The notes beneath the pieces were generated by a model. It was not told the origin of the DNA. It searched no databases and saw only the letters and a program-made list of their open reading frames with translations. From Candidatus Zipacnadia bacterium (GTDB lineage Bacteria; Armatimonadota; Zipacnadia; Zipacnadales; UBA5352), in the NCBI GenBank assembly GCA_029820295.1, contig JALGVA010000009.1, positions 1 to 58,191 of the forward strand: DNA of 58,191 bases. The letters run 5' to 3'. Each line of letters opens with the position of its first letter. The first letter of the stretch is position 1. Of this stretch, positions 3,413 to 51,617 are shown piece by piece. The position numbers were made by a program, and so were the translations under genes.

Positions 3413-3677
3413 CGCGCCCCGCTCCCTTGCGCAGCCGGCGTAGATGTCGAAGGGACCTTTCGCCGTGAGGGAGCGCAGGGCCTGCGCGGAGAGCGAACAG
3501 CAGCGGGAACGGCAACGGCAAAGGCAACGGCGCACGGGCGAGACCGCCCGTGCTACGAACGACGACGAGCACGACACGGCAACAGCCGACGCATGTGACC
3601 GGGCGTCGCTACGAGCGGCGGATGGCAACGGCATGGGGGCGTGGACGTCTTACCTGCCGGAGTGAGCAGGCTGGGGG

Positions 3678-4310
3678 TCACGCGCGCGCTTCGCGCTCGT
3701 CGCCCTCCGGTTCGAGTTCGAGGTCCAGCTCCAGCGGCTCCCAGCCGGCCAGGCCCAGGTCCTCGGGCAGCGCCGCGCCCCACATGCGCCAGACGCGGCC
3801 GCTGAAGGCGAGGCTGAACAGCCCGCCGCCGGCGAGGGCGATGGCGAGGTAGCCCAGGGCGAGGTGGTGCTGCACGTGTGCGAGGTAGGATGCGGGGGCG
3901 TGCCAGGCGTCGAGCATGAAGAACGAGTACGCGCGTCCGGCGAGCACGGCGGCGAGGCACAGGCCGACGATGACGGGCGAGGCGCAGGCCGCCGCCATGC
4001 GCAGGGCCTCGTCGCGGCGCAGGCGCGCGATGTGGCAGGCGACGAGCGACCCGAGCAGGGCGCCCAGGTAGACGCTCAGGCGCTGGGAGGGGTCGGCCAG
4101 TACCGACAGGTCCCACCAGTGCGCCCCCATGCGGGCGCTGATGGCCAGGTGCGTACCCGCGCCCGCGGGCGCGCCGATCATCGCCCCCCATGAGCCGATG
4201 CGGAAGAGCCGGTGCCAGCGCTCGGGAAGCAGCTCCGCATAGGACCACATGTAGAGGCAGGCCGCGCACGCGGCCACCGCCCCCGCAGTTGTCAGCCACT
4301 GGATGTGCAT
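3678..4310 (-). CDS. small polytopic membrane protein of unknown function, last gene of the flotillin operon
   Basis: 210 aa, hydrophobic segments throughout, acidic C-terminus. Co-directional with and 107 nt downstream of the flotillin gene. Confidence 0.4.
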   Translation of the reverse strand: MHIQWLTTAGAVAACAACLYMWSYAELLPERWHRLFRIGSWGAMIGAPAGAGTHLAISARMGAHWWDLSVLADPSQRLSVYLGALLGSLVACHIARLRRDEALRMAAACASPVIVGLCLAAVLAGRAYSFFMLDAWHAPASYLAHVQHHLALGYLAIALAGGGLFSLAFSGRVWRMWGAALPEDLGLAGWEPLELDLELEPEGDEREARA

Positions 4311-4347
4311 GTCGCTCGCTCATCCCCCGGGGTGCCGAGGGGAAATC

Positions 4348-4376
4348 GGGGGACGCGAGTCGCGCTCGCGTCCCCC
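4348..4376 (-). terminator. GC-rich hairpin (12-bp perfect stem, 5-nt loop) just downstream of the flotillin stop
   Basis: GGGGGACGCGAG tcgcg CTCGCGTCCCCC. There is no U-tract, which is usual in this GC range. Confidence 0.4.
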
Positions 4377-4416
4377 GGTCGTGTCCGAGCAGTCTACCCC
4401 ACCGCCCCCCGGCCTG

Positions 4417-6433: not shown

Positions 6434-7498
6434 TCACTGCTGGCTCAGGATGTCGGTGTCCCGGGCGGCGGGTGGACGTTCGCCGAACCGGCGCGTCTGG
6501 ACATCTTCAGGGCCAGCGACGCCGCCGGCACGAGCGCGCCCGTGCCCGTGCGCACCATCGTCTGACAGCGGAGATGTGGCGACATCATAGTAGTCACCCT
6601 CCGGGTGGTACCGGATCAAAATGACCTCGACTCCCTTGGGGACGCCACCGTCCATGGTGCGGCCCATGACCTGGTGCAGCGTGCCGCCCTCGTCCTTGAC
6701 GTGCACCAGCCCGCGCGCGCCCTCGTGGATGCCGTAGACGCAGGTGCCCACGTGCCCAACCAGGTCCTCCTCGGTCACCGCGTAGGTCTCGCGCGTGGGC
6801 ATGATGCGGCTCAGACCGCGCGCCACCGTACCGGTAAGCATCAGCGACGTCAGCGTGGCCAGCGCCAAGGACGGCCAGAAGTACACCGCCGGGCCCCACG
6901 AGAACGGCAGCACATGCTCGAACAGCCCGTTGGCGATCAGCCCCGAGGCGCCGAAGAGCACCATCAGGCAGGTCATCAGAATCGACACCGGCACCTTGCC
7001 GAAGCCCAGCACCGACAGCGCTCGGATCAGCAGCGACGGCTGCTGCGCGACCACCTCGTGCGCCTCGTGCTCGACGCCATGGCCGGGCCCGTGCTCACCT
7101 GCCACGTCGTGCTCGGTCGCCACGTCATGGTCGATGTCGTGGTCCATGTCCACGTCATGGTCCACGTCCAGGTCATGGTCTACGTCGAGATCGTGATCCA
7201 CGTCCAGGTCATGGTCCATGTCGATGTCGTGATCGGCGCCGATGTCCAGGTCATGATCCATGTCCAGATCATGCGCCAGGTCCACGTCGTGCGTGAGATC
7301 GACGTCGTGCGCGAGATCGACGTCGTGGTCCATGTCCACGTCGTGGGCCAGATCGAGGTCATGGGAGAGATCGACGTCGTGGTCCACGTCGGTGTCGTGC
7401 ACCTCGCTGCCGAGGCCCACGGCGCTGAGCACCAGGTAGACGCCGGAGAGGGCGACCGGCGCGACGAAGATCAGGTTGTACCACTCCAGCAGGTTCAT
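6434..7498 (-). CDS. NfeD-like (YqiJ-type) membrane protein with a long His-Asp repeat region
   Basis: N-terminal TM, then about 100 aa of (H-D-[VLI]-D-[LMV]-x) repeats, then TM segments and a C-terminal NfeD-like OB-fold region (VGHVGTCVYGIHEGARGLVHV...). An AAGGAGG RBS precedes the ATG at 7498. It lies immediately upstream of the flotillin gene, the typical nfeD-flotillin pairing. Confidence 0.7.
   Translation of the reverse strand: MNLLEWYNLIFVAPVALSGVYLVLSAVGLGSEVHDTDVDHDVDLSHDLDLAHDVDMDHDVDLAHDVDLTHDVDLAHDLDMDHDLDIGADHDIDMDHDLDVDHDLDVDHDLDVDHDVDMDHDIDHDVATEHDVAGEHGPGHGVEHEAHEVVAQQPSLLIRALSVLGFGKVPVSILMTCLMVLFGASGLIANGLFEHVLPFSWGPAVYFWPSLALATLTSLMLTGTVARGLSRIMPTRETYAVTEEDLVGHVGTCVYGIHEGARGLVHVKDEGGTLHQVMGRTMDGGVPKGVEVILIRYHPEGDYYDVATSPLSDDGAHGHGRARAGGVAGPEDVQTRRFGERPPAARDTDILSQQ
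7093..7402. repeat. 12-nt tandem coding repeat (GTCCACGTCATG-like units, about 25 copies) encoding the HDVD repeats of the NfeD-like protein
   Basis: Periodicity is visible directly in the sequence: gtccacgtcatggtccacgtccaggtcatggtctacgtcgagatcgtgatc... Confidence 0.8.
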
Positions 7499-10195: not shown

Positions 10196-11386
10196 CTACG
10201 CCACCGGCTCGATCTCCGCGAGACGGTCGCCGATGTAGCGCAGCCGGTCCAACGACGCGTCCGGCGGCGTGGTGTCGGCGATCGAGTAGATAATCCCCCG
10301 GTAGTCGTCGCCCGCCGCCGCGATCACGTCCTCGAGGTGATCGTCGAACTCGTCGTCGCTGAAGCTGCTCTCCAGCACGCTCGACGAGCAGATGCCGCCC
10401 CAGATGGCCGGATGCGCGCCGAAGGCCTTGCGGTAGTCGGCCAGCGACAGCCGGGTCATCGGCGCCGGGCAGACCGAGTCCGCAAGGTCGATGCCGCACT
10501 GCACATAGAGGTCGAGCAGCCCTTCGTTCTCACCGTCGGTGTGGGTCGCGACCAGCTTGCCGGCCGCGTGCAGGCGCTCGGTGGCCCAGGTCAGGAAGGG
10601 CGCGATGTGCTCGGCGAACAGCGGCGGCGGCGTGAGCATCACGTCGTAGTTGGCACCCAGCAGCACCACCTCGGCGGAGCTTTGCGCGCAGGCGTCCACC
10701 ACGGCGCGGAAGTAGCCCTCCATGCGCGCCGCCGTCGCCGCGATCAGCTCCGGGTGGTCATGCAGATTGAAGAAGAACTCATCGTAGGGCACAAGCTCCT
10801 TGAGCAGATGGTGCACGGGCGAGGCGGCAACGTTGGCGAAGGCGACGGCCACGCCGTCGTCGCCGACCTCCGCCTGGAACCGGGCGTAGCGGCCGCCGGG
10901 CTCGACCTGCAGGTCCTCGAATACGAAGGCGATGACCTCATAGTCCGCGGGCGACTTCACGGCGCGCTCGGAGCAATGCAGCAGCGTGACGCCGTCGCGG
11001 CGCATCTGCGGCGTGTGCACCAGCTTCGTGGTGAGCGTGCCGACGGGTGTGCGGTAGGTGATGCGGTAGATGCCGCCGGTGCGCTCGACGGTGCGCTCGG
11101 TCTCACGGAAGCTCAGGCGGTAGGGCTGGTTGCGCACGTGCACCAGGCCCAGCGCCTGGTCGGCGACCTCGTCGGGCTCTTCGACGTCGAGGAAGTCGGG
11201 GATGACCTCGTGGCGGCCCACGCCCAGGATACGCTGGATGCCCCACAGCGGCATGTCGGACCACGCCTGCGGCAGCGTGCCGCGGAAGCGGTTGGCCTTG
11301 TACCACAGGTCGAGCCGGGGCACCCACGGGACCTGATCCACCGGCTCGGCGCGGATGGCGGCGAGGATTCTCTCGCGATGGGTCAT
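10196..11386 (-). CDS. uroporphyrinogen decarboxylase (URO-D) family protein, MtaA-like
   Basis: 396 aa from MTHRERILAAIRAEPVDQVPWVPRLD..., which is the URO-D/methyltransferase TIM-barrel signature. The upstream Arg-rich 112 aa of the ORF were judged non-coding. Confidence 0.6.
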   Translation of the reverse strand: MTHRERILAAIRAEPVDQVPWVPRLDLWYKANRFRGTLPQAWSDMPLWGIQRILGVGRHEVIPDFLDVEEPDEVADQALGLVHVRNQPYRLSFRETERTVERTGGIYRITYRTPVGTLTTKLVHTPQMRRDGVTLLHCSERAVKSPADYEVIAFVFEDLQVEPGGRYARFQAEVGDDGVAVAFANVAASPVHHLLKELVPYDEFFFNLHDHPELIAATAARMEGYFRAVVDACAQSSAEVVLLGANYDVMLTPPPLFAEHIAPFLTWATERLHAAGKLVATHTDGENEGLLDLYVQCGIDLADSVCPAPMTRLSLADYRKAFGAHPAIWGGICSSSVLESSFSDDEFDDHLEDVIAAAGDDYRGIIYSIADTTPPDASLDRLRYIGDRLAEIEPVA

Positions 11387-11763
11387 GGCGCTCCCCTGTG
11401 ACGCGCGACGGGCGTTCAGATGAAGGTTCGGTGGAAGCGCGCCGGGACCTCCCTGTCTCCGCCCCGCCGCCGCTGCCGTCCGCCGCGGTCGCGGAGGGAC
11501 CGCACGACGGGCGATGGCGCAGCGATCGCCCGCAGGTCGGCCTAACACAGTCGTTCGCCACTCGCGCCTTCGTGACGCCGAACGGCGCACGGGTCCCGCC
11601 CTCGTGCGGGATGCCACGGAACGACTCGGGCCCTCTGCCATTGCTGTTGGCTCGTAGTTCGCAGCTCGTAGCCGGTAGCCTGAAGGTCGCCCTCCCGCCC
11701 GGGTCGAATACACACCCTCCACGCCCGCCGCGCACGCATATCATCGACCAGAGAGCGCATGTA

Positions 11764-13062
11764 ATGGCATACGGTGACGACGCCGTGACGCTCAGCCGCG
11801 ACGAGATCGACGCCCTGCAGGTGCAGGCGCTGCGCGAGACGCTGGAGCGCGCCCGCCGGGCGCCCGCGTACGCCGATCGGCTCAGCGACATCTCGCCCAA
11901 CGACATCCGCGGCCCCGAGGACGTCCGCCGGCTGCCCCTGACCGGCAAGGATGACTTGCGCGCGGGCATGCCCTGGGGCTTCCTGGCGGCGCCGCGGCGC
12001 GATGTGGTGCGCATGCACTATTCCTCGGGCACCACGGGCCTTGCGACCGCGGTCTTCCATACGCGCGGCGACCTGGAGCGCTGGGCGCAGTGCGTGGCGC
12101 GGGGGATGCTCGCCGCGGGTGTCACCGAGGACGACGTCTTCCAGAACATGATGGGCTACGGCCTGTTTACCGGCGGCCTGGGCTTCCACTACGCCGGCGA
12201 GCTGATCGGGTGCATGACCATCCCGGCCGGCTCCGGCAACACCGAGCGTCAGATCCACCTGATGCAGGGCTTCGGGTCGAGCGTGCTGCACATCATCCCC
12301 AGCTACGCCCTGCGCGTGCTGCATGTGTGCGAGGGCGAGGGCATCGATCCGCACGCCGACCTCTCGGTGCGCGTAATCTTCGTCGGCGGCGAGCCGCACA
12401 GCGAGCAGCTCCGCCGGCGCATCGAGGACGGCTTCGGCGCGAAGGTCTACAACTGCTACGGGCTGTCCGAGATGTGCGGGCCGGGCGTGGCCATGGAGTG
12501 CGCGCAGCAGCACGGCCTGCACGTCTGCGAGGACCACTACCTCGCGGAGGTGCTCGACCCGGAGACGCTCGAGCCGGTGCCGCCGGGCGAGCTGGGGGAG
12601 CTGGTGCTGACCACGCTGTGCCGCGAGGCCATGCCGCTGCTGCGCTACCGCACCCGCGACATCGTGCACGTGATCGAGGGCGAGTGCCCGTGCGGGTCGC
12701 GCCACGCGCGCATCTCGCGCATCGAGGGCCGCAGCGACGACATGCTGGTGGTCAGGGGCGTGAACGTCTACCCGCTGCAGGTGGAGCGCGCGCTGCTGGA
12801 TTTCGACGAGGTGGGCCGCAATTATGTAATCACGCTCGACCGCCCCGCCGACCTCGACCGCATGACCGTCGCGGTCGAGCTGGCGCAGGCCGGCTTCGCG
12901 GACGAGATGCGTCGGCTCAATGCGCTGCGCGAGCGTATCTGCCGGCGGCTGCGGTCGGAGCTGGACCTGGGGGTCGAGGTGGAGTTGCACGAGCCCGGCG
13001 CCCTGCCCGTCAGCGAGGGCAAGGCCGTGCGCGTGATCGACAGGCGAAACCAGGAGACCTGA
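11764..13062 (+). CDS. paaK: phenylacetate-CoA ligase family protein (PaaK-like)
   Basis: 432 aa with the YSSGTTG adenylation motif and a PaaK-type C-terminal domain. Start at MAYGDD. Confidence 0.8.
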   Translation: MAYGDDAVTLSRDEIDALQVQALRETLERARRAPAYADRLSDISPNDIRGPEDVRRLPLTGKDDLRAGMPWGFLAAPRRDVVRMHYSSGTTGLATAVFHTRGDLERWAQCVARGMLAAGVTEDDVFQNMMGYGLFTGGLGFHYAGELIGCMTIPAGSGNTERQIHLMQGFGSSVLHIIPSYALRVLHVCEGEGIDPHADLSVRVIFVGGEPHSEQLRRRIEDGFGAKVYNCYGLSEMCGPGVAMECAQQHGLHVCEDHYLAEVLDPETLEPVPPGELGELVLTTLCREAMPLLRYRTRDIVHVIEGECPCGSRHARISRIEGRSDDMLVVRGVNVYPLQVERALLDFDEVGRNYVITLDRPADLDRMTVAVELAQAGFADEMRRLNALRERICRRLRSELDLGVEVELHEPGALPVSEGKAVRVIDRRNQET

Positions 13063-13070
13063 TCGATACC

Positions 13071-14861
13071 ATGACGGACACCGCAAGGGACCTGTCGAGA
13101 ACGCTGTTGCTGTCGGGTAACGAGGCCATCGCACGCGGGGCGTGGGAGGCGGGCGTGCGCTTCGGCTCGGGCTACCCGGGCACCCCATCGTCGGAGATAC
13201 TCCCGGCGCTCAAGGAGCTGGGCGACGCCTACGTCGAGTGGTCGGTGAACGAGAAGGTGGCGCTGGAGGCAGCCGCGGGGGCCTCGATCGCCGGTGCCCG
13301 TGCGCTGGTGACCATGAAGCACGTGGGCCTGAACGTCGCCGCCGACCCGCTGTTCACCCTGTCGTACACGGGCGTGGCGGGTGGGCTGGTCATCATCTCC
13401 GCCGACGACCCGTCGATGCACTCGTCGCAGAACGAGCAGGACAACCGCAACTACGCGCGCGCGGCCAGGGTGCCGATGCTCGAGCCCGCCGACAGCCAGG
13501 AGGCGCGCGAGATGACCATGCGCGCCTTCGAGCTGAGCGAGCAGTTCGACGTGCCGGTGATCGTGCGCCCGGTCACGCGCATCTGCCACTCGGACGGCCT
13601 GGTCGAAGTCGGCGAGCGTCGGCAGGTCGAGCTGCGCGCGGAGCTGGAGCCGAACGCGCGCAAGTACGTGATGATCCCGGCGTGGGCGCGCGAGCGCCGC
13701 GTGGTCATGGCCGAGCGCACCCTCGAACTGATCGCTCTCGCCGAGGAGACCGACCTCAACCGCGAGGAGATAGGCGATACGTCGCTCGGCATCATCGCCT
13801 CCGGCGTGGCCTGGCAGCACGCGCGCGAGGCCTTCCCGGACGCGTCGTTCCTGAAGCTGGGGCTGGCCTGGCCGCTCCCGCCCGAGCGCATCCGGCGCTT
13901 CGCCGCGCAGGTCGAGCGGCTGTTCGTGGTCGAGGAGCTGGACCCGTTCCTGACCGCGCAGATCCTGGCGATGGGCGTCGCGGTCGAGCCGGTGGACGGG
14001 CGCTTCCGCCTGGGCGAGCTGACTCCGGGGCGTGTGCGCGCGATGATCACCGGCGAGCCGGTGCCGCGGGTGGCCGCGGACGAGGACCTGCCACCGCGCC
14101 CGCCGACTCTGTGCGCCGGCTGCCCGCATCGCAGCGTCTTCAGCGCGCTGCGCGAGATCAAGGCCTACGTGACCGGCGATATCGGCTGCTACACGCTGGG
14201 CACGCTGCCGCCGCTGCAGGCGCTGCACACCTGCCTGTGCATGGGCGCAGGCGTCAGCCAGGCGCACGGCATGCAGAAGGTGCGCGGTCACGAGGCCCCG
14301 GTGGTGGCGGTCATCGGCGACTCCACCTTCACGCACTCGGGCATCACCGCGCTGGTGAACATTGCCTACAATGCGGGCGTGAGCACCGTGGTGATCCTCG
14401 ACAACCGCACCACCGCCATGACCGGCGGGCAGGTGCACCCGGGCGTGGGCGAGACGCTGTCGGGGATGCCCGGCCGGGCGCTGGACTTCGAGGCGCTGGC
14501 GCGCGCGGTCGGCATCGACGACGTGCGGGTGGTCGATCCCTACGACCTGGCCGCCACCGAGCAGGCGCTGCGTGAGGCGATGGCCTCGCCCGAGCCGTCG
14601 GTGGTGATCGCGCGGCGCGAGTGCGCGCTGATGGTGCCCGACTACGGGCCCGCGCCGGTGCTCGATGAGGAGCTGTGCATCCGCTGCGGCAAGTGCATCC
14701 GCATCGGCTGCCCGGCGCTGTCGGCGTTCGACGACGGAGGGAAGCGGCCCATCCCGCGCATCGACGCGGCGCTGTGCACGGGCTGCACCATGTGCGCGCA
14801 GGTGTGCCCGGTGAACGCGCTGAAGCTACCGGCCGACGCCGAGGGCAGGGGTGATGCGTGA
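13071..14861 (+). CDS. iorA: indolepyruvate ferredoxin oxidoreductase alpha subunit
   Basis: 596 aa with a TPP-binding region (GDIGCYTLG..., GDSTFTHSG) and two C-terminal 4Fe-4S cysteine clusters ([25 protein letters not shown]). Confidence 0.85.
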
Positions 14862-17320: not shown

Positions 17321-17351
17321 ACGAGGCCGGCCCTCACCGGGCCGGCCTCGT
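17321..17351. terminator. bidirectional GC hairpin (13-bp stem) between convergent genes
   Basis: ACGAGGCCGGCCC tcacc GGGCCGGCCTCGT. Confidence 0.5.
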
Positions 17352-18819: not shown

Positions 18820-19932
18820 TCACCCCAACGCCTCGCGCACGACCTCGCACACCCGGTCGATCTGCGCGTCGGTCAGCTCCGGGTACATCGGCAGCGACAG
18901 CACCTCGCTGGCCGCGCGTTCGGTCTCGGGGAGCGAGCCCTTGCCGTAGCCCAGGTCCGCCAGCGCCGCCTGCAGGTGGCAGGGCACCGCGTAGTGGATG
19001 GCGTGGCCGATTCCCGCCGCCGCGAGCGCCGCCGCCAGCTCATCGCGCCGCTTCGAGCGCACCGTGTAGAGGTGGTAGACCGACTCCGCCCAGTCCGCCA
19101 CCACGGGTAGCGTCAGGTCGTCGATGCCCGCCAGCGCCGCGTCATAGCGTGCCGCATGCTCGCGCCGCGCCTGGTTCCATGCGTCGAGGCGGCGCAGCTT
19201 GATGCGCAGCACCGCTGCCTGCAGCTCATCGAGGCGGCTGTTGTAGCCGATCATCTCGTGGACGTACTTCTCCAGACTCCCGTGCACGCGCAGCGAGCGC
19301 ACCCGCTGCGCGAGCGCCTCGTCGCCTGCGGTGACCACGCCGCCCTCGCCGTAGGCCGCGAGGTTCTTGCTCAGGTAGAAGCTGAAGGCGGCACCGTCGC
19401 CCAGTCCGCCCACGCGCCTGCCACAGTAGCGTGCGCCGTGGGCCTGCGCGGCGTCCTCGAGCAGGAGGATATCGCGGCCGGCGATCGCCTCGGCCAGCGC
19501 GCCCATGTCGGCGGGGTGGCCGTAAAGATGCACGGCCATGATGGCACGCGTCGCGGGCGTGATCGCCTCGGCGGCGAGTTGCGGGGAGATGCAGTAGGTA
19601 TGCGGGTCGATGTCCACCAGCACCGGCGTGGCGCCCGTCTGCACGATGGCCTCAATGGTGGCGATGAAGGTGAACGAGGTGGTGATGACCTCATCGCCGG
19701 GCCCAACATCGTGGGCGCGCAGCAGCAGGTGGAGCGCCTCGGTGCCGTTGCCCACCCCCACGGCGTGCGCGACCTCGGAGTACTGCGCCCACTCGCGCTC
19801 GAAGGCCTGCACGTTGGGCCCGAGGTTGAGCTGCATGCCGGTGAGCGTCTCGTCGAAGGCCGTCAGCACCTCGTCGCGGATGTCGAGATACTGCGACTTC
19901 AAATCAACCATGGGGATGTCCAAGAGTGGCAC
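18820..19932 (-). CDS. DegT/DnrJ/EryC1/StrS-family PLP-dependent sugar aminotransferase
   Basis: 370 aa with the family motifs, including SFYLSKNLAAYGEGG carrying the Lys-PLP site. Confidence 0.8.
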   Translation of the reverse strand: MPLLDIPMVDLKSQYLDIRDEVLTAFDETLTGMQLNLGPNVQAFEREWAQYSEVAHAVGVGNGTEALHLLLRAHDVGPGDEVITTSFTFIATIEAIVQTGATPVLVDIDPHTYCISPQLAAEAITPATRAIMAVHLYGHPADMGALAEAIAGRDILLLEDAAQAHGARYCGRRVGGLGDGAAFSFYLSKNLAAYGEGGVVTAGDEALAQRVRSLRVHGSLEKYVHEMIGYNSRLDELQAAVLRIKLRRLDAWNQARREHAARYDAALAGIDDLTLPVVADWAESVYHLYTVRSKRRDELAAALAAAGIGHAIHYAVPCHLQAALADLGYGKGSLPETERAASEVLSLPMYPELTDAQIDRVCEVVREALG

Positions 19933-20019: not shown

Positions 20020-22209
20020 TCAGCGCGTCAGCGACAGGTGCCGCACGCTGATGACGTCGATGAGCGAGCGCAGGCGTTCGAGGACGTGGTCGAGGTCCTG
20101 GCGGCGGCGGATGTCAAGCTGCAGCTCCAGCCGTGCCAGCCCGGCGTCGGTGGTGGTGGCGTTGGCGGAGGTGATGTTGATGCCGCACTCGGCGATAACC
20201 GCCGCGATATGCGAGAACAGGCCGACGCGATCCACGGCCACGATCTCGATGTCGTGGCGGAAGACCGAGGCCTGCTCGCCGGTCTTCCAGTTGAGCGGCA
20301 CCACGCGGTCGGGTTCGTTGAGGGCGTGGTAGCGCAGGTTCTTGCAGTTGCTGCGGTGGATGGTCAGGCCCCTGCCGCGGGTAATGTAGCCCGTGATGTC
20401 GTCGCCGGGCAGCGGCGAGCAGCACTTGCTCAGCCGGCACTGGAAGCCGTCGTCGCCATCGACGGTGATGGCCGGCGCGTCGGCGCGCGCGCGGCCGACC
20501 GCCGGGGTGTCTCCGAGAACCCGCCGGACCTCCTCGGCGAGGCTCGCGGGCTGCTCGTGGTCCTCCATCAACTCGCGCAGCACCGTGGCTGCCTCGATGT
20601 CGCCGAAGCCCACCGCGGCCAGCAGGTCATCGGTCTCCTTGAAGCCGAAGCGCTCCAGCACCTCGCTCAGGTCATCGAGGTCCACCAGCTCGCGCAGCGC
20701 CTGCGGGTAGTGCCCCAGCGCCTGGCGCAGCGCATCCCGGCCCGCAGCCACGTTCTCGGCGTGGACCTTCTCGCGCAGGTGCCGGCGGATCTTGGCCTTG
20801 GCGCGTGAACTCTTCACCAGCTCCAGCCAGTCGCGGCTGGGCTCCGCCGAGGGCGAGGTGATGATCTCGGCGATGTCGCCGTTGCGGAAGGTGTAGCTCA
20901 GCGGCACCTGGCGGCCGTTGACGCGCGCGCCGGTGATGTGGTGGCCGATCTCGGTGTGGATGCGGTAGGCGAAGTCGATGGGGCCGGCGCCCGCGGGCAG
21001 GTCGATGACGTCGCCGTCGGGGGTGAACACGAACACCTGATCGTTGAACAGGTCCATCTGGAGCAGCTCGAGGAACTCGTGGCTCTCGGTCAGGTCGGTC
21101 TCCAGCTCCAGCACCTGGCGCAGCACCGAGATCTGCTCATCGGCGCCGCGCGCGTCGCCGCCCTCCTTGTAGCGCCAGTGCGCGGCCACGCCGTACTCGG
21201 CGATGCGGTGCATCTCCCAGGTGCGGATCTGCACCTCCAGCGGCTGCTTGTCCGGCCCGATCACCTTGGTGTGCAGCGACTGGTAGCGGTTCGCCTTGGC
21301 CTTGGCGATGTAGTCGGTGAACATGCCCTGGATGGGCATCCACAGCTCGTGCACCAGGCCCAGCGCAGCGTAGCAGTCGGCGACCGAGTCGGTGATGATG
21401 CGGATGGCCGCCAGGTCGGCGATCTCGTCGAAGCTGATGTCCTGGTTGTCCATCTTCTGCGCGATCGAGTAGATGTGCTTGGCCCGCCCCTGGACGGTCG
21501 CGCTCACGCCCTCGGCCGCCAGCCGTCCCTGCACCGCCTGGCGCACCGCCTCGATCTTCTGCTCGCGTTCCTCGCGGCCCTGGCCCAGCTCGCGCGCAAT
21601 CCGGTAGTAGCGCTCGGGTTCAAGGTAGCGGAACGACAGGTCCTCCAGCTCCCACTTGAAGCGCCAGATGCCCAAGCGGTGGGCCAGCGGGGCGAAGATG
21701 TGCAGCGTCTCCTGCGCGGTCGCCACCTGCTTGTCCTCGTCGAGGGCGTAGAGCGTGCGCATGTTGTGCAGGCGGTCGGCGAACTTGATGAGGATGACGC
21801 GGATGTCCTCGGTCATCGCCAGGAACATCTTGCGCAGGTTGCCGGCCTGGCGCTCCTGGCGCGTATGGAACTTCAACCGGGTCAGCTTGGTCACGCCATC
21901 GACCAGCATTGCCACCTCGGAGCCGAACTCCTCCTCGATCTCCTCGAGCGTGGCGTGCGTGTCCTCGACGGTATCGTGCAGCAGCCCGGCGATGACGGTG
22001 GCGGGGTCGGCCTCGATCTCGGTGAGGATCTCGGCAACGGCGAGCGGGTGGGTGATGAAGGGGTGTCCGGTCTTGCGCGGCGGGTCATCGGCATGGGCGA
22101 CGGTGGCGAAGCGCCAGGCGGCCTCAAGCCGCGCGATCTCGGGCTCCGACCAGTAGCCCTCGACGCGGCTGAGGATGGCCTGCAGGCTCTCGGAGTGTGT
22201 GGTTGCCAT
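20020..22209 (-). CDS. relA: bifunctional (p)ppGpp synthetase/hydrolase RelA/SpoT
   Basis: 729 aa with an HD domain (HPLAVAEIL...HDTVED), a synthetase domain, and TGS and ACT C-terminal domains. Confidence 0.9.
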   Translation of the reverse strand: MATTHSESLQAILSRVEGYWSEPEIARLEAAWRFATVAHADDPPRKTGHPFITHPLAVAEILTEIEADPATVIAGLLHDTVEDTHATLEEIEEEFGSEVAMLVDGVTKLTRLKFHTRQERQAGNLRKMFLAMTEDIRVILIKFADRLHNMRTLYALDEDKQVATAQETLHIFAPLAHRLGIWRFKWELEDLSFRYLEPERYYRIARELGQGREEREQKIEAVRQAVQGRLAAEGVSATVQGRAKHIYSIAQKMDNQDISFDEIADLAAIRIITDSVADCYAALGLVHELWMPIQGMFTDYIAKAKANRYQSLHTKVIGPDKQPLEVQIRTWEMHRIAEYGVAAHWRYKEGGDARGADEQISVLRQVLELETDLTESHEFLELLQMDLFNDQVFVFTPDGDVIDLPAGAGPIDFAYRIHTEIGHHITGARVNGRQVPLSYTFRNGDIAEIITSPSAEPSRDWLELVKSSRAKAKIRRHLREKVHAENVAAGRDALRQALGHYPQALRELVDLDDLSEVLERFGFKETDDLLAAVGFGDIEAATVLRELMEDHEQPASLAEEVRRVLGDTPAVGRARADAPAITVDGDDGFQCRLSKCCSPLPGDDITGYITRGRGLTIHRSNCKNLRYHALNEPDRVVPLNWKTGEQASVFRHDIEIVAVDRVGLFSHIAAVIAECGINITSANATTTDAGLARLELQLDIRRRQDLDHVLERLRSLIDVISVRHLSLTR

Positions 22210-22429
22210 GGCCGGCGCGCGCCTCTCCGCCTCAACTTAGCCTCAACTAAGTATACCACGCCCGTGCCCTGATGCGCAACGGCTCCGGCCCTCGTGTTCT
22301 CTGCTGCTGTCTGCCGCTGTCTCCTGCTATCTGCCGTTCGCTGTCGTTCTTTGTGGTTCGCCGCCGTCCGGGTGCGTCCTGAGATTGTCGGCAGACAGCG
22401 CGGCGGTGCGGTGGGACGACCTCCTCACC

Positions 22430-22720
22430 TCCGGCCCGATCCCGGGCGACCGCGTCGTGTGCGGTCGCCCGGGATCGGGGCCCACGCATTACCCACATCT
22501 CGTGCGCGGTCGGGACTCCGGGCCATACGTCGTTTCCGGACGGAGGGTGAGGCGCGCCGGCGCCTCAGCTTCCATGCCGGCCCGGCCGTTGCGTCGTGGG
22601 CCGTTGGCGCTGCCGTCGTGCGCGAGCCGGCATGGAGTTCGCGCAGCGAACTCCCAACAGAAGCCCCGGGGGCTTCTGCATGGAACCTGACGCCTGCGCA
22701 ACACAGCCGCGCAGGCGTCA
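22430..22720. other. cluster of at least five perfect inverted repeats in the roughly 725-bp relA/rmlD intergenic region
   Basis: Stems: 19 bp at 22435-22479; 8 bp at 22548-22567; 9 bp GGAGTTCGC gca GCGAACTCC at 22634-22654; 10 bp at 22658-22678; 12 bp at 22688-22720. No plausible ORF is present. Confidence 0.5.
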
Positions 22721-22895
22721 CTCCCCCGTGCCACAAGGCGGCGCATCGCCTGTCCATCGCGCGGCCTCGCCGCAGCCGTGCCGACTTGTGGGTAATGCAT
22801 AGGGTCGGGACGGGGGAGGAGGCTGTTGCCGTCCGCCCCGCGTCACCCCTCGCTCATACCGACATTCCGGAGTCGCGCCCTGCCGTTCCCCTGCG

Positions 22896-33363: not shown

Positions 33364-33503
33364 CGTCTGCCGTTGCCGTGCCGCCCTGGCGGGCGGGGAC
33401 CGGCGCCTCGCCTGACGTTGCCATAGGCGCGCGTCGTTCGCAGCGACGTGTGTTCACACGCGTCGGCCGTTGCCGTGCGCACACACCGAAAGGGGCGCTC
33501 ACG

Positions 33504-34714: not shown

Positions 34715-34750
34715 GGGGATGGCAGACAGGCCAGGCGCCGTTGCCCCCCG

Positions 34751-38025: not shown

Positions 38026-38049
38026 CCTGACCGGACGAACGAAGCTCTC

Positions 38050-38077
38050 GTGCGGCCCCGCTCCGGCGGGGCCGCAC
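38050..38077 (+). terminator. GC hairpin (12-bp perfect stem) downstream of the transaldolase-like gene
   Basis: GTGCGGCCCCGC tccg GCGGGGCCGCAC. Confidence 0.5.
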
Positions 38078-38089
38078 GCGTCCGGGGGA

Positions 38090-38168
38090 CGAACCCGCCC
38101 GTCGGCCGCGGCGTCATGGAAACGGTGGGGCGGCAGGTGGCCACCGTTGGAGCCGGATGGCCTTGACG
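38090..38168. repeat. left copy of an imperfect direct repeat of about 80 bp; the right copy at 39047-39122 carries the uvrA promoter
   Basis: Shared collinear blocks with similar spacing: CGAACCCG, CGGCC, GGCGTCATGGA, CCTTGACG. The two copies bracket the low-GC NYN gene. Confidence 0.5.
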
Positions 38169-38193
38169 CTAGCCTGTGGATCCCGGGTAGTCC

Positions 38194-38223
38194 TTGACTC
38201 AGGCGCTCAACGAAGTCTATAAT
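38194..38223 (+). promoter_or_regulatory. near-consensus sigma70 promoter for the NYN gene
   Basis: TTGACT - 18 nt - TATAAT, conspicuous in a roughly 70% GC background. It lies about 95 nt upstream of the ATG. Confidence 0.5.
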
Positions 38224-38246
38224 AGACCCCGACACACATGAACCCG

Positions 38247-38293
38247 CCCACGTCTTCACGTGGGCTGGAGGCCACTTCTCTCGAAGTGGCCTC
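38247..38293 (+). promoter_or_regulatory. two stable stem-loops in the 5' UTR of the NYN gene
   Basis: CCCACGT cttc ACGTGGG at 38247-38264 and GAGGCCACTTC tctc GAAGTGGCCTC at 38268-38293. These account for the spurious N-terminal extension of ORF 38238. Confidence 0.35.
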
Positions 38294-38318
38294 TGCCGTT
38301 TGTGGGGGGCGCTGCCCA

Positions 38319-38999
38319 ATGCGCTGCTGGGTCTATGTCGACGGGTTCAACCTGTACCATGGGGCCGCGAAGCCGGCGGGCTGCAAGTGGTTGGACCTCC
38401 TTCAACTGAGTCAGCGGATACGAAGGAACGATACCATAGACCGCATCAAGTACTTCACAGCCCTTGTGGAGAACAGGCCTGACGACCCCGATCAGCAGAG
38501 AAGGCAGCGGCTCTACTGGCGTGCACTTGACACGATCCCCTGCCTGCAGCGCATTGAGGGCCAGTTCACGAGCCACCCACGGACGATGCCACTGCACGAG
38601 TCCGTTGAGACCTTGCGGGAGCTGGATAGGCGGGGCTGCAGCGTCACTGGCGTCAGGCCGGTCATGATGAAGGTCCTGCGGTGCGAGGAGAAGGGCACTG
38701 ACGTCAATCTCGCAGTCCACCTCGTGAATGATGCACACCAGTCAGACCCTGGTAGGACATTCGACTTGGCAGTGGTTCTGTCTGCGGACTCGGATCTCTA
38801 CGAGGCCATTCGCATCGTCACACAGGAGATAGGCAAGCCGGTCTTCGTATACACCCCGAACAGGAAAGTGCAGACGGCCAAGCTCAGGAGGGCCGCGACC
38901 AACGTCTTCAGCCTCACGAAGTCGAAACTCCGCGCATCTGCCTTCCCCAGCACCCTCACTGACGCCCGAGGCAGCTTCTCGAAGCCATCGGGCTGGTAG
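38319..38999 (+). CDS. NYN-domain (LabA-like) putative ribonuclease
   Basis: VYVDGFNLYHGA...EKGTDVNLAVHLVNDA...VVLSADSDL matches the conserved acidic NYN motifs. Local GC is about 50-55%, against about 70% in the flanks. Confidence 0.7.
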   Translation: MRCWVYVDGFNLYHGAAKPAGCKWLDLLQLSQRIRRNDTIDRIKYFTALVENRPDDPDQQRRQRLYWRALDTIPCLQRIEGQFTSHPRTMPLHESVETLRELDRRGCSVTGVRPVMMKVLRCEEKGTDVNLAVHLVNDAHQSDPGRTFDLAVVLSADSDLYEAIRIVTQEIGKPVFVYTPNRKVQTAKLRRAATNVFSLTKSKLRASAFPSTLTDARGSFSKPSGW

Positions 39000-39046
39000 C
39001 CACTTGCTCGAAGATCGCTCGCACGCAATCGCACGCGTCTGCGGCG

Positions 39047-39122
39047 CGAACCCGAGCGGCCACCGGGGCGTCATGGAGCGAGGCGCGCGCCGTTGCCCGC
39101 GCCATCCATGAACGCCTTGACG
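39047..39122. repeat. right copy of the imperfect direct repeat; it overlaps the uvrA -35 element
   Basis: See the left copy at 38090-38168. Confidence 0.5.
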
Positions 39123-39145
39123 TCGAACATATGTTCCGATAGAAT
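39117..39145 (+). promoter_or_regulatory. uvrA promoter with a LexA (Cheo-type) SOS box in the spacer
   Basis: TTGACG - 17 nt - TAGAAT. The spacer is TCGAACATATGTTCCGA, matching the Gram-positive LexA consensus GAAC-N4-GTTC (perfect 12-bp palindrome GAACATATGTTC, 39125-39136). Confidence 0.55.
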
Positions 39146-39224
39146 CCCGGCAACGCACGGACGGCGCGCGGGCTCCGCGACCTGCGCTGCCGGCCCGTGA
39201 TACGACCATCGGAGTGACCCCTGC

Positions 39225-45484
<6,260 letters not shown>

Positions 45485-45488
<4 letters not shown>

Positions 45489-46150: not shown

Positions 46151-46197
46151 CGGCGGCAGGACGATGGCCGTCGCGCTTCGTCGTCCTGGAAACGACT

Positions 46198-46219
46198 CGG
46201 CCGGGCTGAAGCCCGGCCG
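46198..46219. terminator. GC hairpin between convergent genes
   Basis: CGGCCGGGC tgaa GCCCGGCCG. Confidence 0.4.
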
Positions 46220-46343
46220 CTCCATGACGGCGACGACCGGCGCGCCGCCGTCGCTTGCGGCCTGCGGCTCGCCGTTGCCCCGAACGACAACGGCGGCGCC
46301 TTCCGGCGCCGCCGCGTCCGCCGCTGATATCAGCCCAGCGGCG

Positions 46344-49094: not shown

Positions 49095-49109
49095 GGGAGC
49101 GACCGCCAC

Positions 49110-50225
49110 ATGCGCTTCACCATCGACGAGCAGTTGGCCGACGGCCGCGGGCGCACCGGCACGCTGGAGCTGGCGCACGGGGTCGTGCGTACGCCCGCGT
49201 ACATGCCGTGTGCCAGCCGCGCCGCGGTGCGCGCCTGCCCGCCCGGTGAGATCGCCGCCGCGGGCGTGCAGATCGTCGTCGCCAACGCCTACCACCTGCA
49301 CCTGCGCCCGGGCGAGGACGTCGTGGGGGACTGCGGTGGCCTGCACCGCTTCATGCGCTGGGACCGCCCCATCCTCACCGACAGCGGCGGCTTCCAGGTG
49401 TTCTCGCTCGCCGACCGCAACTGCATCACCGAGGAAGGCGTGACCTTCCGCTCGCCGGTCGATGGCCACGAGATCCTGCTCACCCCCGAGCTGTCGGTGC
49501 AGATTCAGATGACGCTCGGCGGCGACATCGCCATGCCGCTCGACGAGTGCTGCCCGTGCCCGGCCGAGCGCGACTACGTCGAGCGCTCGATCGAACGCAC
49601 GCTGCGCTGGGCGGAGCGCTCGCTGGCCGCCCATCGTCACGACGCACAGCGGCTCTTCGGCATCGTGCAGGGCGGCGTCTACCCGCAGTTGCGCGCCCGC
49701 AGTGCGCGCGCGACCGCCGAGCTGGGCTTCCCGGGCTTCGGCATCGGCGGGCTGTCGGTCGGCGAAAGGCGCGACGAGATGCTGGTGGCGCTGCGCGCGG
49801 CGATGGCGGCGCTGCCCGCCGATCGCCCGGTGCACCTCATGGGCGTGGGCACGCCGCTGGACATCGTCGACTGCGCCGCCGAGGGCGTGGACCTGTTCGA
49901 CTGCGTGCTGCCCACGCGCAACGCCCGCCACGGGGGCGTGATGACCTGGGAGGGCGTGCTGCGCATCGCGGCGGCCGAGCACGAGCGCGACACGCGGACA
50001 CTCTCTGAGGAGTGTGACTGCCCGGCCTGCGCGCAGGGCTTCTCCCGCGCCTACCTGCGCCACCTCTTCCGCATCAAGGAGCCGCTGGGCTGGCAGCTCC
50101 TGAGCCTGCACAACGTGCGGTTCTACACGCAACTGCTGGAGCGCGTGCGCGCGGCCATCGCCGCCGACGCGCTGGGCGAGCTGCGCGCGCAACTCTCGGC
50201 GTGGAGCGAGAGGGATCGGGCGTGA
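49110..50225 (+). CDS. tgt: queuine tRNA-ribosyltransferase (tRNA-guanine transglycosylase)
   Basis: 371 aa with DSGGFQ and a zinc site (CDCPAC...H). Confidence 0.85.
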   Translation: MRFTIDEQLADGRGRTGTLELAHGVVRTPAYMPCASRAAVRACPPGEIAAAGVQIVVANAYHLHLRPGEDVVGDCGGLHRFMRWDRPILTDSGGFQVFSLADRNCITEEGVTFRSPVDGHEILLTPELSVQIQMTLGGDIAMPLDECCPCPAERDYVERSIERTLRWAERSLAAHRHDAQRLFGIVQGGVYPQLRARSARATAELGFPGFGIGGLSVGERRDEMLVALRAAMAALPADRPVHLMGVGTPLDIVDCAAEGVDLFDCVLPTRNARHGGVMTWEGVLRIAAAEHERDTRTLSEECDCPACAQGFSRAYLRHLFRIKEPLGWQLLSLHNVRFYTQLLERVRAAIAADALGELRAQLSAWSERDRA

Positions 50226-51508
50226 GCTTCGTCGAGAAGCCGCCGCTGAGCATCGAGCCGCCGGATGACATACCGGTGTACTTCGCCACGCTCATTGCCG
50301 GTCTGGAGCTGATCGTGGCCGACGAGGTCGAGCAGCGCCTGCCCGCGGCGCAGGTGCTGGGGGCGCTGCGCGGCAAGCTGGTGTTCGCCTCGCCCGAGCC
50401 ACCCGGGGCGGCGCTTGAGCTGGGGACGATCGAGCATCTCTTCGCCTGGGCGGGGCAGATTGAGGCGCTACCCACCTCGCGCGAGGGGCTGGAGGTCATC
50501 GAGCGCGAGCTGGAGGCGCTCGACCTGGGCCCGGCGCTGTCGCTCTTCCACCGCCTGCACGGTGAGCCCGAGCAGCCCGGCTTCCGCATCACCGCCCAGC
50601 GCGCCGGGAACCACGAGTACAACTCGGTGGAGATCGCGGCGGCGGCGGGCGCGGGCGTCAACCGGCGTTACGGCTGGGCGGTCGATCTCACGCAGTACGA
50701 CTACGACGTACGCGTCTACGTGACCGATGACAGCGCCCTCGTGGGCCTGCGGTTGTCCGAGGAGGCGCTGCACCGGCGCGCGCGCGTACGCCACGCGGCG
50801 GCCTCACTGAATCCCACGGTGGCGCATGCCATGTGCCGGCTGGCCGCGCACGCGCTCGGGCGGGCGTCGGCCGAGCGGGCGACTCCCGCCGGCCGCCCCT
50901 CCGGCCCGGACGGACCGCCCCACCTGGCCGAGGAGGCGTCGGCCTTCCCCGCCGCCGTGGTCGGGCAGGTGTTCGTGGACCCGATGTGCGGCGCCGGGAC
51001 GATCCTGATCGAGCGCGCGTCCCTGGGCGAGGTCGGCCTGCTGGTAGGTGGCGAGCTGCACGAGCAGCCGCTGGCGGCTGCGCGCGAGAACCTGGCGGCG
51101 GCGTCACTGAGCCGGCCTGCGGGGCGCGAGAACCTGGCGGCGGCCTGCGGGAGCCCGGCCGCGTCGGCCGAGGGGCCGGCGGACCCGGGGCTCAGCGCCG
51201 CGCTGGTGCGTTGGGATGCGCGCCGGCTGCCCCTGCGGCGCGGCAGCGTGGACGCGGTCGCATGCAACCTGCCGTGGGGTCGGCGCGTGGGCTCCCACCG
51301 CGCCAACCGGCACCTCTACCCGGGCTTCATGCGGGAGCTGGGGCGCGTGCTGCGCCCCGGCGGGGTCGCGGTGCTGCTGACGCAGGAGAAGCGCCTGATC
51401 GCCCGCCTGATGGCGAAGAGTCGCAAGCTGACGCTCGTCGAGCAGTACCCCCTGAGCCTGTCGGGGATGTACCCGACGATCTACGTCCTCACCCGCACCG
51501 CCGACTGA
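50222..51508 (+). CDS. THUMP-domain plus class I SAM-dependent methyltransferase (RNA m2G-type, RlmL/Trm14-like)
   Basis: Methyltransferase motif I VFVDPMCGAGTILIE and NLPWG motif IV (N6/N2 amino-methyltransferase DPPY-like). The GTG start overlaps the tgt stop (GTGA); ATG 50201 is an alternative. An internal duplication of about 20 bp (REN LAAA) lies at 51073 and 51125. Confidence 0.6.
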   Translation: MSFVEKPPLSIEPPDDIPVYFATLIAGLELIVADEVEQRLPAAQVLGALRGKLVFASPEPPGAALELGTIEHLFAWAGQIEALPTSREGLEVIERELEALDLGPALSLFHRLHGEPEQPGFRITAQRAGNHEYNSVEIAAAAGAGVNRRYGWAVDLTQYDYDVRVYVTDDSALVGLRLSEEALHRRARVRHAAASLNPTVAHAMCRLAAHALGRASAERATPAGRPSGPDGPPHLAEEASAFPAAVVGQVFVDPMCGAGTILIERASLGEVGLLVGGELHEQPLAAARENLAAASLSRPAGRENLAAACGSPAASAEGPADPGLSAALVRWDARRLPLRRGSVDAVACNLPWGRRVGSHRANRHLYPGFMRELGRVLRPGGVAVLLTQEKRLIARLMAKSRKLTLVEQYPLSLSGMYPTIYVLTRTAD

Positions 51509-51617
51509 CGGCCGTTGCCGTTGGTCGTCGTCCGTGGCATCCCGCCCACCGGCGGGACCCGTGGGCCGTTGCCGTCTCCCTCCGCCGTTGCCGACGACCG
51601 GCGACAGCCAGAACCGC

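Follow-up and report, generated by a model that had tools for sequence, protein, structure and literature searches.

A transcription-oriented intergenic 9-mer in a Zipacnadia contig and its possible role as the core of a family of mosaic extragenic repeats

Why does one 9-mer, GCCGTTGCC, recur in the spacers of a single metagenomic contig, each time in the sense of the gene that precedes it? The contig (JALGVA010000009.1), which was analyzed in its entirety and is denoted the window here, consists of 58,191 bp from an uncultured member of the Armatimonadota (WS1/Zipacnadia). Its G+C content is 70%, and the Pfam domains detected in its open reading frames (ORFs) correspond to ordinary housekeeping functions. 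The 9-mer is greatly enriched in spacers, where it is located in gene 3' regions and oriented with transcription, and it is part of modular units that are shared between unrelated sites in the window and in related genomes. We favor, with moderate confidence, the interpretation that a lineage-specific family of short extragenic repeats, resembling repetitive extragenic palindromes (REPs) and bacterial interspersed mosaic elements (BIMEs), is dispersed in this genome and that GCCGTTGCC, as a tag or linker, forms its best-conserved and non-palindromic core.

The gene map of the window was derived from codon statistics and matches the JGI gene calls on identical short contigs. On this map, intergenic DNA amounts to 5.3 kb (9% of the window), of which 2.0 kb (38%) belongs to five divergent spacers. 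The nearest relatives, judged by the tRNA-guanine transglycosylase gene (70-88% amino-acid identity), are metagenome-assembled genomes labelled candidate division WS1, 'Candidatus Zipacnadia' or Armatimonadota. The loci sampled from relatives include L002/L205, from the closest GTDB relative (24 kb); L207, from a second related species in the same sample (22 kb); and L204, from another metagenome, which encodes a THUMP protein 78% identical to that of the window and is counted with L206 as one lineage. All copy counts rest on the 58 kb of the source genome plus the sampled loci of relatives.

On both strands of the window, we found 16 exact copies of GCCGTTGCC, compared to 1.17 +/- 1.06 in 100 dinucleotide shuffles (maximum 4). 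Spacers contain 12 of these copies, with 0.158 expected under a first-order Markov model of the spacers (an approximately 75-fold excess), whereas coding DNA contains four, with 1.02 expected. Among all spacer k-mers, GCCGTTGCC and its sub-words give the top signal, above the ribosome-binding site. The over-representation relative to composition claimed in the preliminary description of the contig is thus borne out, as are its count of 12 intergenic copies, its plus-strand positions and the cluster of three copies (within 82 bp) after the THUMP methyltransferase gene. The starts that it gave for the three minus-strand copies were wrong by one position, these copies actually spanning 3511-3519, 3523-3531 and 3624-3632, and its estimate of about two coding copies was too low. 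The four coding copies are located at 19744-19752 (+), antisense to a DegT-family gene, and at 41043-41051 (-) and 43077-43085 (-), both in uvrA, all three being read in frame as GGC-AAC-GGC, and at 22033-22041 (-) in relA/spoT, where the frame is GCC-GTT-GCC. Because all four are in frame as common codons, we attribute them to codon usage and place them outside the element. Near-variants had also been reported and do exist close to the places given; they are found at 22585, 22600, 22822, 33414 and 47930(-), with CGTTGCC present at 27960. Additional variants were detected at 3505, 3517, 3578(-), 46286(-) and 52496(-).

Searches for the 9-mer elsewhere yielded no named counterpart. A literature search with the 9-mer or its complement retrieved primers and unrelated sequences only, and the Rfam covariance models gave no match at gathering thresholds, the sole hit below E=0.5 being a chance-level match to M23 (E=0.41). 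In a metagenome scan for pairs of the form GCCGTTGCC-N0-30-GCCGTTGCC, none of the matches listed came from the source organism; most of the pairs among them were spaced in multiples of three, which fits coding repeats (GGC-AAC-GGC on the other strand).

Seven spacers, of which four separate same-direction genes and three separate convergent ones, account for the 12 intergenic copies. No copies occur in the 2.0 kb of the five divergent spacers, and 12 of 12 lie in spacers that include the 3' end of a gene, with gaps of 2, 5, 21, 22, 45, 89 and 120 nt between the upstream stop codon and GCCGTTGCC. This distribution bears on the possibility that the 9-mer is a promoter element or a transcription-factor operator, an idea that draws on the resemblance of its TTGCC segment to a -35 element and on the copy located 19 nt upstream of the uvrA promoter, where a partial inverted CGTTGCC (39149-39155, minus strand) follows just past the -10. 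A promoter or operator would hardly be absent from all five divergent spacers and present in three convergent ones, one of them only 36 nt long; moreover, no fixed-spacing partner of the -10 or -24/-12 type was seen, and elsewhere the promoters of the organism have the canonical form TTGAC-N17-TAnAAT. This explanation appears barely credible. The specific readings as a sigma-70 -35, a sigma-54 -12 or an extracytoplasmic function (ECF) sigma -10 element were rejected on the same two counts, the missing fixed-spacing partner and the missing divergent-spacer copies. Hidden coding, whether as Ala-Val-Ala signal-peptide codons, short ORFs or stop-codon read-through, was also rejected. In the frame of the long ORF 2378-3634, the motif would be translated as Arg-Cys repeats, both JGI and our own gene caller start the gene at 3412, and ribosome-binding sites are absent.

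Within the same-direction spacers of the window, all seven copies are in the sense orientation. Counted by spacer, the motif is exclusively sense in four of four same-direction spacers that carry it in the window, one of one in L206 and two of two in L024 (7/7 in three genomes), and the sub-motifs show the same tendency, with sense to antisense ratios of 13:2 for GYCGTT and 9:1 for CGTTGCC. A consistent order was seen in three of three convergent spacers, one each in the window (46271/46286), L204 and L004, with plus copies to the left, on the side of the plus-strand gene, and minus copies to the right, on that of the minus-strand gene. The rule stated in the preliminary description, that every copy reads in the sense of its upstream gene, is literally true and is informative in same-direction spacers; the convergent pairs, which were cited in its support, carry no information alone, since a copy between two such genes is sense to one or the other whichever way it points. 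Within the window, the motif changes strand wherever the genes do, and transcription and replication are therefore inseparable as correlates there. In L204 and L004, copies of opposite orientation lie less than 300 nt apart in a convergent spacer, which identifies the direction of transcription, not that of replication, as the correlate and excludes a replication-linked orientation of the kind known for Chi, FtsK-orienting polar sequences (KOPS) or architecture-imparting sequences (AIMS), for which an origin near 11.5 kb had been considered from the skew minimum. Neither a dnaA gene nor an AT-rich region is present in the window.

A strong transcription-linked orientation is not required for DNA uptake either. 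The length of the motif, its lineage specificity, its enrichment near terminators and the single inverted pair (46271/46286) would all fit a DNA uptake sequence (DUS) as in Neisseria or an uptake signal sequence (USS) as in Pasteurellaceae. The excess is limited to spacers, however, and, with the four coding copies being in-frame common codons, the density outside spacers is at background; we consider an uptake sequence very improbable. The earlier suggestion of an element associated with 3' untranslated regions (3' UTRs) or terminators, or of a binding site, captured correctly that the motif is tied to gene 3' regions and follows transcription, but the motif is neither a canonical terminator nor an isolated site.

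The flanks of the copies show that the repeated segment extends beyond nine nucleotides. No consensus is common to all GCCGTTGCC flanks beyond a frequent GT after the 9-mer; compared pairwise, copies have contexts of 11-40 nt in common. These include 24 nt at 92% identity between 3575-3598 and 33454-33477; 20 nt at 95% (CGCGCGCCGTTGCCsGCGCC) between 28935-28954 and 39084-39103; 40 nt at 87.5% between 51531-51570 and 11581-11620; and 13 nt at 100% between 33464-33476 and 51509-51521. Shared contexts of 20-40 nt imply duplication rather than independent origin. Around the motif, GYCGTT(GCC)-type linkers alternate head-to-tail with GC-rich stem-loops, which have stems of 6-9 bp, a loop that is often TTCA, and a 5' tag, GTAG, GCAG or (CAT)GGAG. 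The tag is GTAG at two window units (3553-3556 and 3609-3612, minus strand), GCAG at one (33440-33443), and GGAG or CATGGAG at the remaining units (46220-46226, 39072, L204 and L024), with GTAG-GTCGGGCT hairpins also present in L024. The sequence sCATGGA(G/A) stands directly 5' of a stem-loop in 8 of 8 intergenic occurrences examined (18754, 22570(-), 22631, 22679, 38115, 39072, 46220(-) and 52548(-)); its frequency is 8 in 5.3 kb of spacer DNA versus 14 in 52 kb of coding DNA, and it also precedes stem-loops in L204, L024 and L205.

Nine units with different stems pair perfectly throughout, with 8 of 9 pairs changed on both sides, a count that is descriptive inasmuch as the units were hand-picked as stem-loops. 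The two wobble pairs seen are both G-T on the tag-to-tail strand. With the nine units as input, a covariance model recovered further members only in the window, L204 and L024. Rather than an isolated site, as it had been viewed, the 9-mer is the most strongly conserved part of longer dispersed units, which are intermingled with tagged stem-loops and recur in related genomes at non-orthologous places, and this points to a REP/BIME-like repeat family, a kind of element that the preliminary description had not considered.

Part of the array sequence is periodic, with hexamer repetition at 3505-3531 (GCCGTT GCCTTT GCCGTT GCCGTT) and at 51511 (GCCGTT GCCGTT), and (GTCGTT)n runs in L204. Local slippage of a (GCCGTT)n microsatellite, of which GCCGTTGCC would represent 1.5 units, could generate such runs, but it cannot account for one 9-mer in 7 separate spacers, where most window copies are isolated 1.5-unit occurrences, and leaves the shared non-repetitive flanks and the orientation rule unexplained. 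Slippage is an improbable source of the family.

Spacer 3413-3677, between same-direction genes, is the richest in the window. An exact copy at 3624-3632 (-) lies 45 nt past the stop of the gene at 3678-4310 (-). The unit at 3575-3616 (-) has the structure GTAG-CGACGC-ccggtcacat-GCGTCG-GCTGTTGCC-GTG and includes a one-mismatch motif (3578-3586). The third element of the spacer is a 9-bp stem-loop at 3532-3553 (-), with a 5' GTAG tag (3553-3556) whose last G belongs to the stem. Directly 3' of the stem-loop GCACGGGCG-gtct-CGCCCGTGC is the exact copy at 3523-3531 (-), within a covariance-model match at 3520-3561 (E=9e-6), and the copy at 3511-3519 (-) is the second of a tandem pair (GCCGTTGCC-TTT-GCCGTTGCC-GTTCCC).

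On the plus strand, an exact copy is found at 28940-28948, 21 nt past the stop of a pfkB-family gene, and another at 33369-33377, 5 nt past the stop of a gene for a FAD-binding protein. These are followed by a one-mismatch copy, GACGTTGCC, at 33414-33422 (+), directly after a stem-loop, and by the unit GCAG-CGACGTGTG-ttca-CACGCGTCG-GCCGTTGCC-GTG at 33436-33477 (+; exact motif 33466-33474; covariance model E=8e-7). The stem of this unit contains a single G-T pair, which can form on the plus strand only; the unit stops 26 nt ahead of the ATG of the next gene, its GCCGTTGCC being 29 nt ahead. The convergent spacer 34715-34750, just 36 nt long, holds a copy at 34737-34745 (+), 22 nt past the stop of the plus-strand gene, and GGGATGGCAGACAGG, which precedes this copy, is also present at L024 2384-2398. 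The copy at 39089-39097 (+) precedes a sigma-70-like uvrA promoter by 19 nt and is situated in the loop of a stem-loop (GGCGCG/CGCGCC) with a CATGGAG tag.

Two convergent spacers end in hairpins that relatives share. In the first, the unit CATGGAG-CGGCCGGGC-ttca-GCCCGGCCG-AGTCGTT (46186-46227, minus strand; covariance model E=5e-8) is accompanied by an exact copy at 46271-46279 (+), which forms an inverted pair with GCCGTTGTC at 46286-46294 (-) and lies 11 nt upstream of an older, bidirectional terminator-like hairpin, CGGCGGCGCC-ttcc-GGCGCCGCCG (46291-46314), that is kept in the orthologous spacers of L003 and L008. In the second, an exact copy at 51511-51519 (+) begins 2 nt past the stop of the THUMP methyltransferase gene and has CGGCCGTTGCCGT in common with the copy at 33466; the unit TCCGTGGCA-TCCCGCC-cacc-GGCGGGA-CCCGTGG-GCCGTTGCC (51531-51573, plus strand; exact motif 51565-51573) follows, and a last copy at 51584-51592 (+), 10 nt past the previous one, is 25 nt upstream of the terminator-like hairpin GACCGGCCCGC...GCGGGCCGGTC (51618-51649), which is kept in L002, in a spacer otherwise lacking the motif. 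A second TCCCGC(C) stem-loop unit, with a GCCGTT end followed by CGG, is located at 11581-11620 (-) in a divergent spacer, so that units are not strictly excluded from such spacers. The unusually long (748 nt) divergent spacer between relA/spoT and rmlD (22210-22957) holds six variants that differ from the motif at one position and occur in both orientations; of its five strong stem-loops, three carry a CATGGA(G/A) tag.

Related genomes share these units at unrelated positions. Window 46191-46231 matches L204 4614-4654 at 97.6% over 41 nt, and the unit at 46186-46227 matches L024 15141-15167 at 100% over 27 nt, both at non-orthologous sites. The stem-loop at 3532-3553 with its GCCGTT tail (window 3526-3552) recurs at the non-orthologous L204 4568-4594, and the TCCCGCC stem-loop, with two copies in the window, has one in L024 (10931-10954, the match to the unit at 51531-51573). 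In L204, the spacer after the THUMP gene exceeds 400 nt and contains at least 7 motif-like units, arranged as GGAG-tagged TTCA-loop stem-loops separated by GCCGTTGCC, GTCGTTGCC and TGCCGTTCGCCGTTGG, plus-oriented on the left and minus-oriented on the right. L024 carries the tandem array GGAG-CGGCCGGGC-ttca-GCCCGGCCG-ATGTCGTTGC(C)GTA, and a single stem-loop, with a GGAG tag, the linker GCTGTTGCTGTT and the tail CGTCGTT, is retained in L205.

The distribution of the motif is patchy. Four lineages (the window, L204/L206, L004 and L024) carry GCCGTTGCC or the variant GTCGTTGCC, and GCCGTTGCC is absent from the sampled loci of L002/L205 (24 kb), L207 (22 kb), L003 and L005-L013. The terminal hairpin (window 51618-51649 and 46291-46314) is all that is conserved in the orthologous convergent spacers of L002, L003 and L008; ahead of this hairpin, starting from the stop codon, the window has approximately 100 nt of additional repeat sequence, which is unalignable or absent in these three loci. 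The orthologous spacers after the THUMP gene contain 3 motif copies in the window, at least 7 in L204 and none in L002. For the richest spacer, 3413-3677, the gene neighborhoods of L209 and L210 differ, and for this reason neither has an orthologous spacer.

In relatives without GCCGTTGCC, no convincing equivalent in the form of an analogous species-specific motif was found. One of these loci, L005, contains a different dispersed repeat of ~70 nt, at 2998(-), 6138(-) and 6307(+), consisting of the stem-loop CCAGGCG-ccct-CGCCTGG followed by AGAGTCGTTACCC...ACCGTTGATAC; only CCGTTG is common to this repeat and the window motif. L024 has other repeats as well, namely, a ~95-nt tandem repeat in 3-4 copies (12360-12864, 10810-11216 and 13573-13858), each copy with two stem-loops, GCGCAGACG-aggg-CGTCTGCGC and CGGCAGGT-cccctc-ACCTGCCG, and several GTAG-GTCGGGCT-ttcc-AGCCCGAC hairpins, which are classic GTAG-tagged REP-like units.

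The arrays lie between the stop codon and an older terminator hairpin common to relatives, and one is located between genes of an operon. The REP/BIME-like interpretation rests on the agreement of several features, namely, shared flanks that decay away from the core, modular arrays with tags, sharing between unrelated sites, insertion between stop codon and terminator, exclusion from promoter spacers, and patchiness among relatives. Under this scenario, units would be copied into permissive transcribed sites, after which all but the core would decay; copying is preferred over independent site creation because the latter does not explain the shared contexts. By analogy with REPs, the copying might be performed by a single-strand-specific Y1 enzyme, either a REP-associated tyrosine transposase (RAYT) or an IS200/IS605-type enzyme, that reads a stem-loop together with a short flanking tag, and local tandem duplication may contribute. 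The arrays would be transcribed as 3' UTR or intercistronic RNA and could, as REPs do, stabilize or attenuate the upstream message.

Several observations weigh against this interpretation. The conserved unit is a non-palindromic 9-mer rather than a palindrome; the arrays run head-to-tail on one strand, with 46271/46286 as the sole inverted pair; and many tags are (CAT)GGAG instead of GTAG. No Y1_Tnp, RAYT or other transposase domain was found in any of the window ORFs or related loci, and the copy number is that of only 58 kb of the source genome. A stem-loop of at least 6 bp ends 0-8 nt upstream in 4 of 12 exact copies, compared to 16% of random spacer positions, a difference that is not significant and because of which 'hairpin plus tail' was rejected as a general rule. 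Finally, two or three lineages have an exact motif, with unalignable flanks, right after orthologous stop codons, and selection on a functional site would produce the same pattern. Thus, an exact GCCGTTGCC lies 1 nt past the stop of the orthologous FAD gene in L206 (5650) and 5 nt past it in the window, the remaining spacer being unalignable, and the motif follows the THUMP gene in the window, L204 and L004. Exact sites beside orthologous stops with unalignable flanks imply that individual sites can persist or recur while arrays expand and collapse. Membership of the GCCGTTGCC family in REP proper is unproven.

Exact sites at orthologous gene ends would be explained by the main alternative, a stand-alone, sequence-specific cis signal, which a lineage-specific factor would read either in RNA as GCCGUUGCC or as a polar site on DNA. 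The factor might be a termination or roadblock protein, an RNA-binding protein that processes or stabilizes 3' ends, or a small RNA, and the stem-loops would be ordinary terminators that happen to be nearby. The strict sense orientation in 7 of 7 same-direction spacers of three genomes, the plus-left, minus-right arrangement in 3 of 3 convergent spacers and the exact copies 1-5 nt past the orthologous FAD-gene stop all agree with such a signal, as does the recurrence after the THUMP gene in three lineages, and tandem copies within a spacer would fit cooperative binding. A further point in its favor concerns the terminators of the window: between 28000 and 47999, we detected no canonical intrinsic terminators (a GC-rich hairpin with a T run within 0-2 nt) in 20 kb, compared to 3.9 in shuffles. 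The hairpins present at gene ends are GC-rich, but their tails are weak and poor in T (for example, 17321-17351, 38049-38078 and 4347-4377); this bacterial group appears to lack U-tract terminators. GCCGTTGCC itself was rejected as a canonical terminator, having no U-tract and no fixed distance to the stop codon or a hairpin, with one copy 29 nt before a start codon. That copy, within an apparent operon, and the variable distances to stop codons (2-120 nt) and hairpins are equally awkward for a 3'-end signal. Furthermore, the motif is absent from the closest relative and from the sister species in the same sample, which have the same genes in the same order, and therefore it is not part of core gene expression; the contexts of 20-40 nt common to copies indicate duplication, and the copy number per spacer changes rapidly (3 in the window, at least 7 in L204 and 0 in L002). 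On balance, we consider a stand-alone 3'-end signal possible but doubtful. Its stronger version, in which GCCGUUGCC, with the dialect GUCGUUGCC in related lineages, is a dedicated orientation-dependent signal that terminates or stabilizes transcripts and the repeat-like spread is a consequence, seems unlikely. A candidate factor would be an RNA- or DNA-binding protein built of helical repeats (HEAT/PUF/mTERF-like); proteins of this class are abundant in these genomes. If real, this would be a new kind of bacterial 3'-end signal.

The lack of canonical intrinsic terminators also brings Rho into consideration. A Rho-utilization (rut) site is a C-rich, G-poor, unstructured RNA segment, and GCCGTTGCC with its (GYCGTT)n relatives could be viewed as a rut-type tract, pyrimidine-rich, A-poor RNA with YC every 6 nt, on which Rho would be loaded downstream of genes. 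Motif-rich segments indeed contain 7-13% A, with T exceeding A on the sense strand, for example, in GCCGTTGCCTTTGCCGTTGCCGTTCCCGCTGCTGTT. Nevertheless, the C-G skew is inconsistent (-0.18 to +0.13), G makes up one third of the motif, and, in contrast to unstructured rut sites, the segments alternate with stem-loops of high stability; nor would an exact 9-mer, or its patchy distribution among relatives, be expected. We give this explanation little credence.

If the REP/BIME-like interpretation is correct, this would be the first mosaic repeat system of that type described in the uncultured WS1/Zipacnadia branch of Armatimonadota, and one with an unusual design, in which a constant, non-palindromic, transcription-oriented 9-mer joins heterogeneous tagged stem-loops head-to-tail. 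The patchy presence of the motif among relatives with the same gene order provides a phylogenetic-profiling handle on the responsible enzyme or binding protein. For annotation, the arrays matter in that they lengthen 3' spacers and create spurious long ORFs (such as 2378-3634), and in genomes for which standard terminator finders give no result, they indicate where operons end.

Several other features of the window were recorded. The relA/spoT-rmlD spacer includes a perfect hairpin with a 19-bp stem (22435-22479) and a T/C-rich, A-free tract (~22300-22360), with no Rfam match. A further stem-loop, GGAGTTCGC-nnn-GCGAACTCC, occurs in two unrelated spacers (22634-22654 and 54600-54620), in the latter case within a ~30-nt tandem duplication (54540-54620) that comprises two copies of cgctcacgatcacccgggagttcgctacg. 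The sigma-70-like uvrA promoter (39117-39145, TTGACG-17-TAGAAT) encloses in its spacer a Cheo-box-like palindrome, CGAACATATGTTCC (39124-39137), which is likely a LexA operator; the sequence is conserved in L205 and, in modified form, in L207. Downstream, a single ORF of 2087 aa (39225-45488) encodes two complete tandem UvrA units (two sets of UvrA_inter and UvrA_DNA-bind); its length is 2087 aa in L205 and 2090 aa in L207. Upstream, a gene encoding an NYN-domain protein (38319-38999) has its own strong promoter (38194-38223) and two leader stem-loops, is bracketed by the direct repeat GGCGTCATGGA (~38112 and ~39069), and is absent from the orthologous TAL-uvrA spacers (L205 7723-7975 and L207 16363-16660, versus window 38026-39224). 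It looks like a lineage-specific insertion. The contig end (358-956) encodes a PIN-domain toxin (358-783) and an overlapping MazE/AbrB-type antitoxin (780-956).

Two nearly identical contigs differ from the window by short indels. The JGI contig L001, otherwise 99.9% identical, lacks the 98 bp found at 18870-18967, and its DegT aminotransferase and DUF488 ORFs are called as a single 544-aa fusion; the difference could reflect strain variation or assembly. The JGI contig L202 from a sister sample, 99.6% identical overall, has 18 additional bases in a YqiJ-like gene (window ~7284-7294), an in-frame strain-level indel.

Among known systems, intrinsic terminators resemble the copies that directly follow a strong GC-rich stem-loop downstream of a gene, but the tail has two U residues, most copies follow no hairpin, and one unit lies 26 nt before a start codon. 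DUS of Neisseria and USS of Pasteurellaceae, which are 9-12-mers, are likewise lineage-specific, over-represented and frequent around terminators; unlike the present motif, with its spacer-confined and oriented excess, they are abundant in genes and show no transcription-linked orientation.

In IS200/IS605 elements, a stem-loop and a short specific flank form the functional unit, and insertion is strand-specific, without target duplication. The stem-loops with short flanking motifs described here resemble the sub-terminal hairpins and cleavage or target sequences of these elements and their miniature derivatives, and an insertion of this type would explain a constant short motif beside variable hairpins as well as the orientation bias. 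Here, however, neither a TnpA or TnpB gene nor recognizable left and right ends were found, and the orientation follows transcription, with both orientations within 300 nt in L204 and L004, whereas the bias of IS200/IS605 elements follows replication.

The closest system is the GTAG-tagged REP super-family (Di Nocera et al. 2013, PMC3733652; Nunvar et al. 2010, PMC2817692; Ton-Hoang et al. 2012, PMC3333891). The unit of REPs and BIMEs is an imperfect palindrome of 20-40 bp, whereas the best-conserved module here is a non-palindromic 9-mer, although the associated stem-loop units do fit. Published REPs mostly form head-to-head or tail-to-tail dimers, head-to-tail ones being rare (PMC3733652); the arrays here are head-to-tail in one orientation, with no inverted dimers of the BIME or REPIN kind. 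REP genomes contain about 100 or more near-identical units and a cognate RAYT gene that REPs usually flank; in the 58 kb of the window, each stem-loop type was seen once or twice, and no RAYT gene was seen. The similarities extend to placement, structure and variation. REP families are found between same-direction and convergent ORFs near stop codons and contain G-T stem pairs (PMC3733652), and the copies described here are extragenic, located in same-direction and convergent spacers and near stops (12 of 12, with gaps of 2-120 nt). Both consist of GC-rich stem-loops with stems of 6-9 bp and short loops. At one foot of the stem, the REPs of this super-family have a conserved GTAG (GYAG/GTRG) tetranucleotide; some units here have a short unpaired GTAG or GCAG tag at the 5' foot, and many have (CAT)GGAG. 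REP families include stem sub-families with complementary changes, short end tags and a species-specific presence (PMC3733652); in the same manner, the units of the window and its relatives form stem sub-families with complementary changes and G-T pairs that suggest folding of one strand, are assembled into mosaic clusters with linker motifs, and vary in presence among related species.

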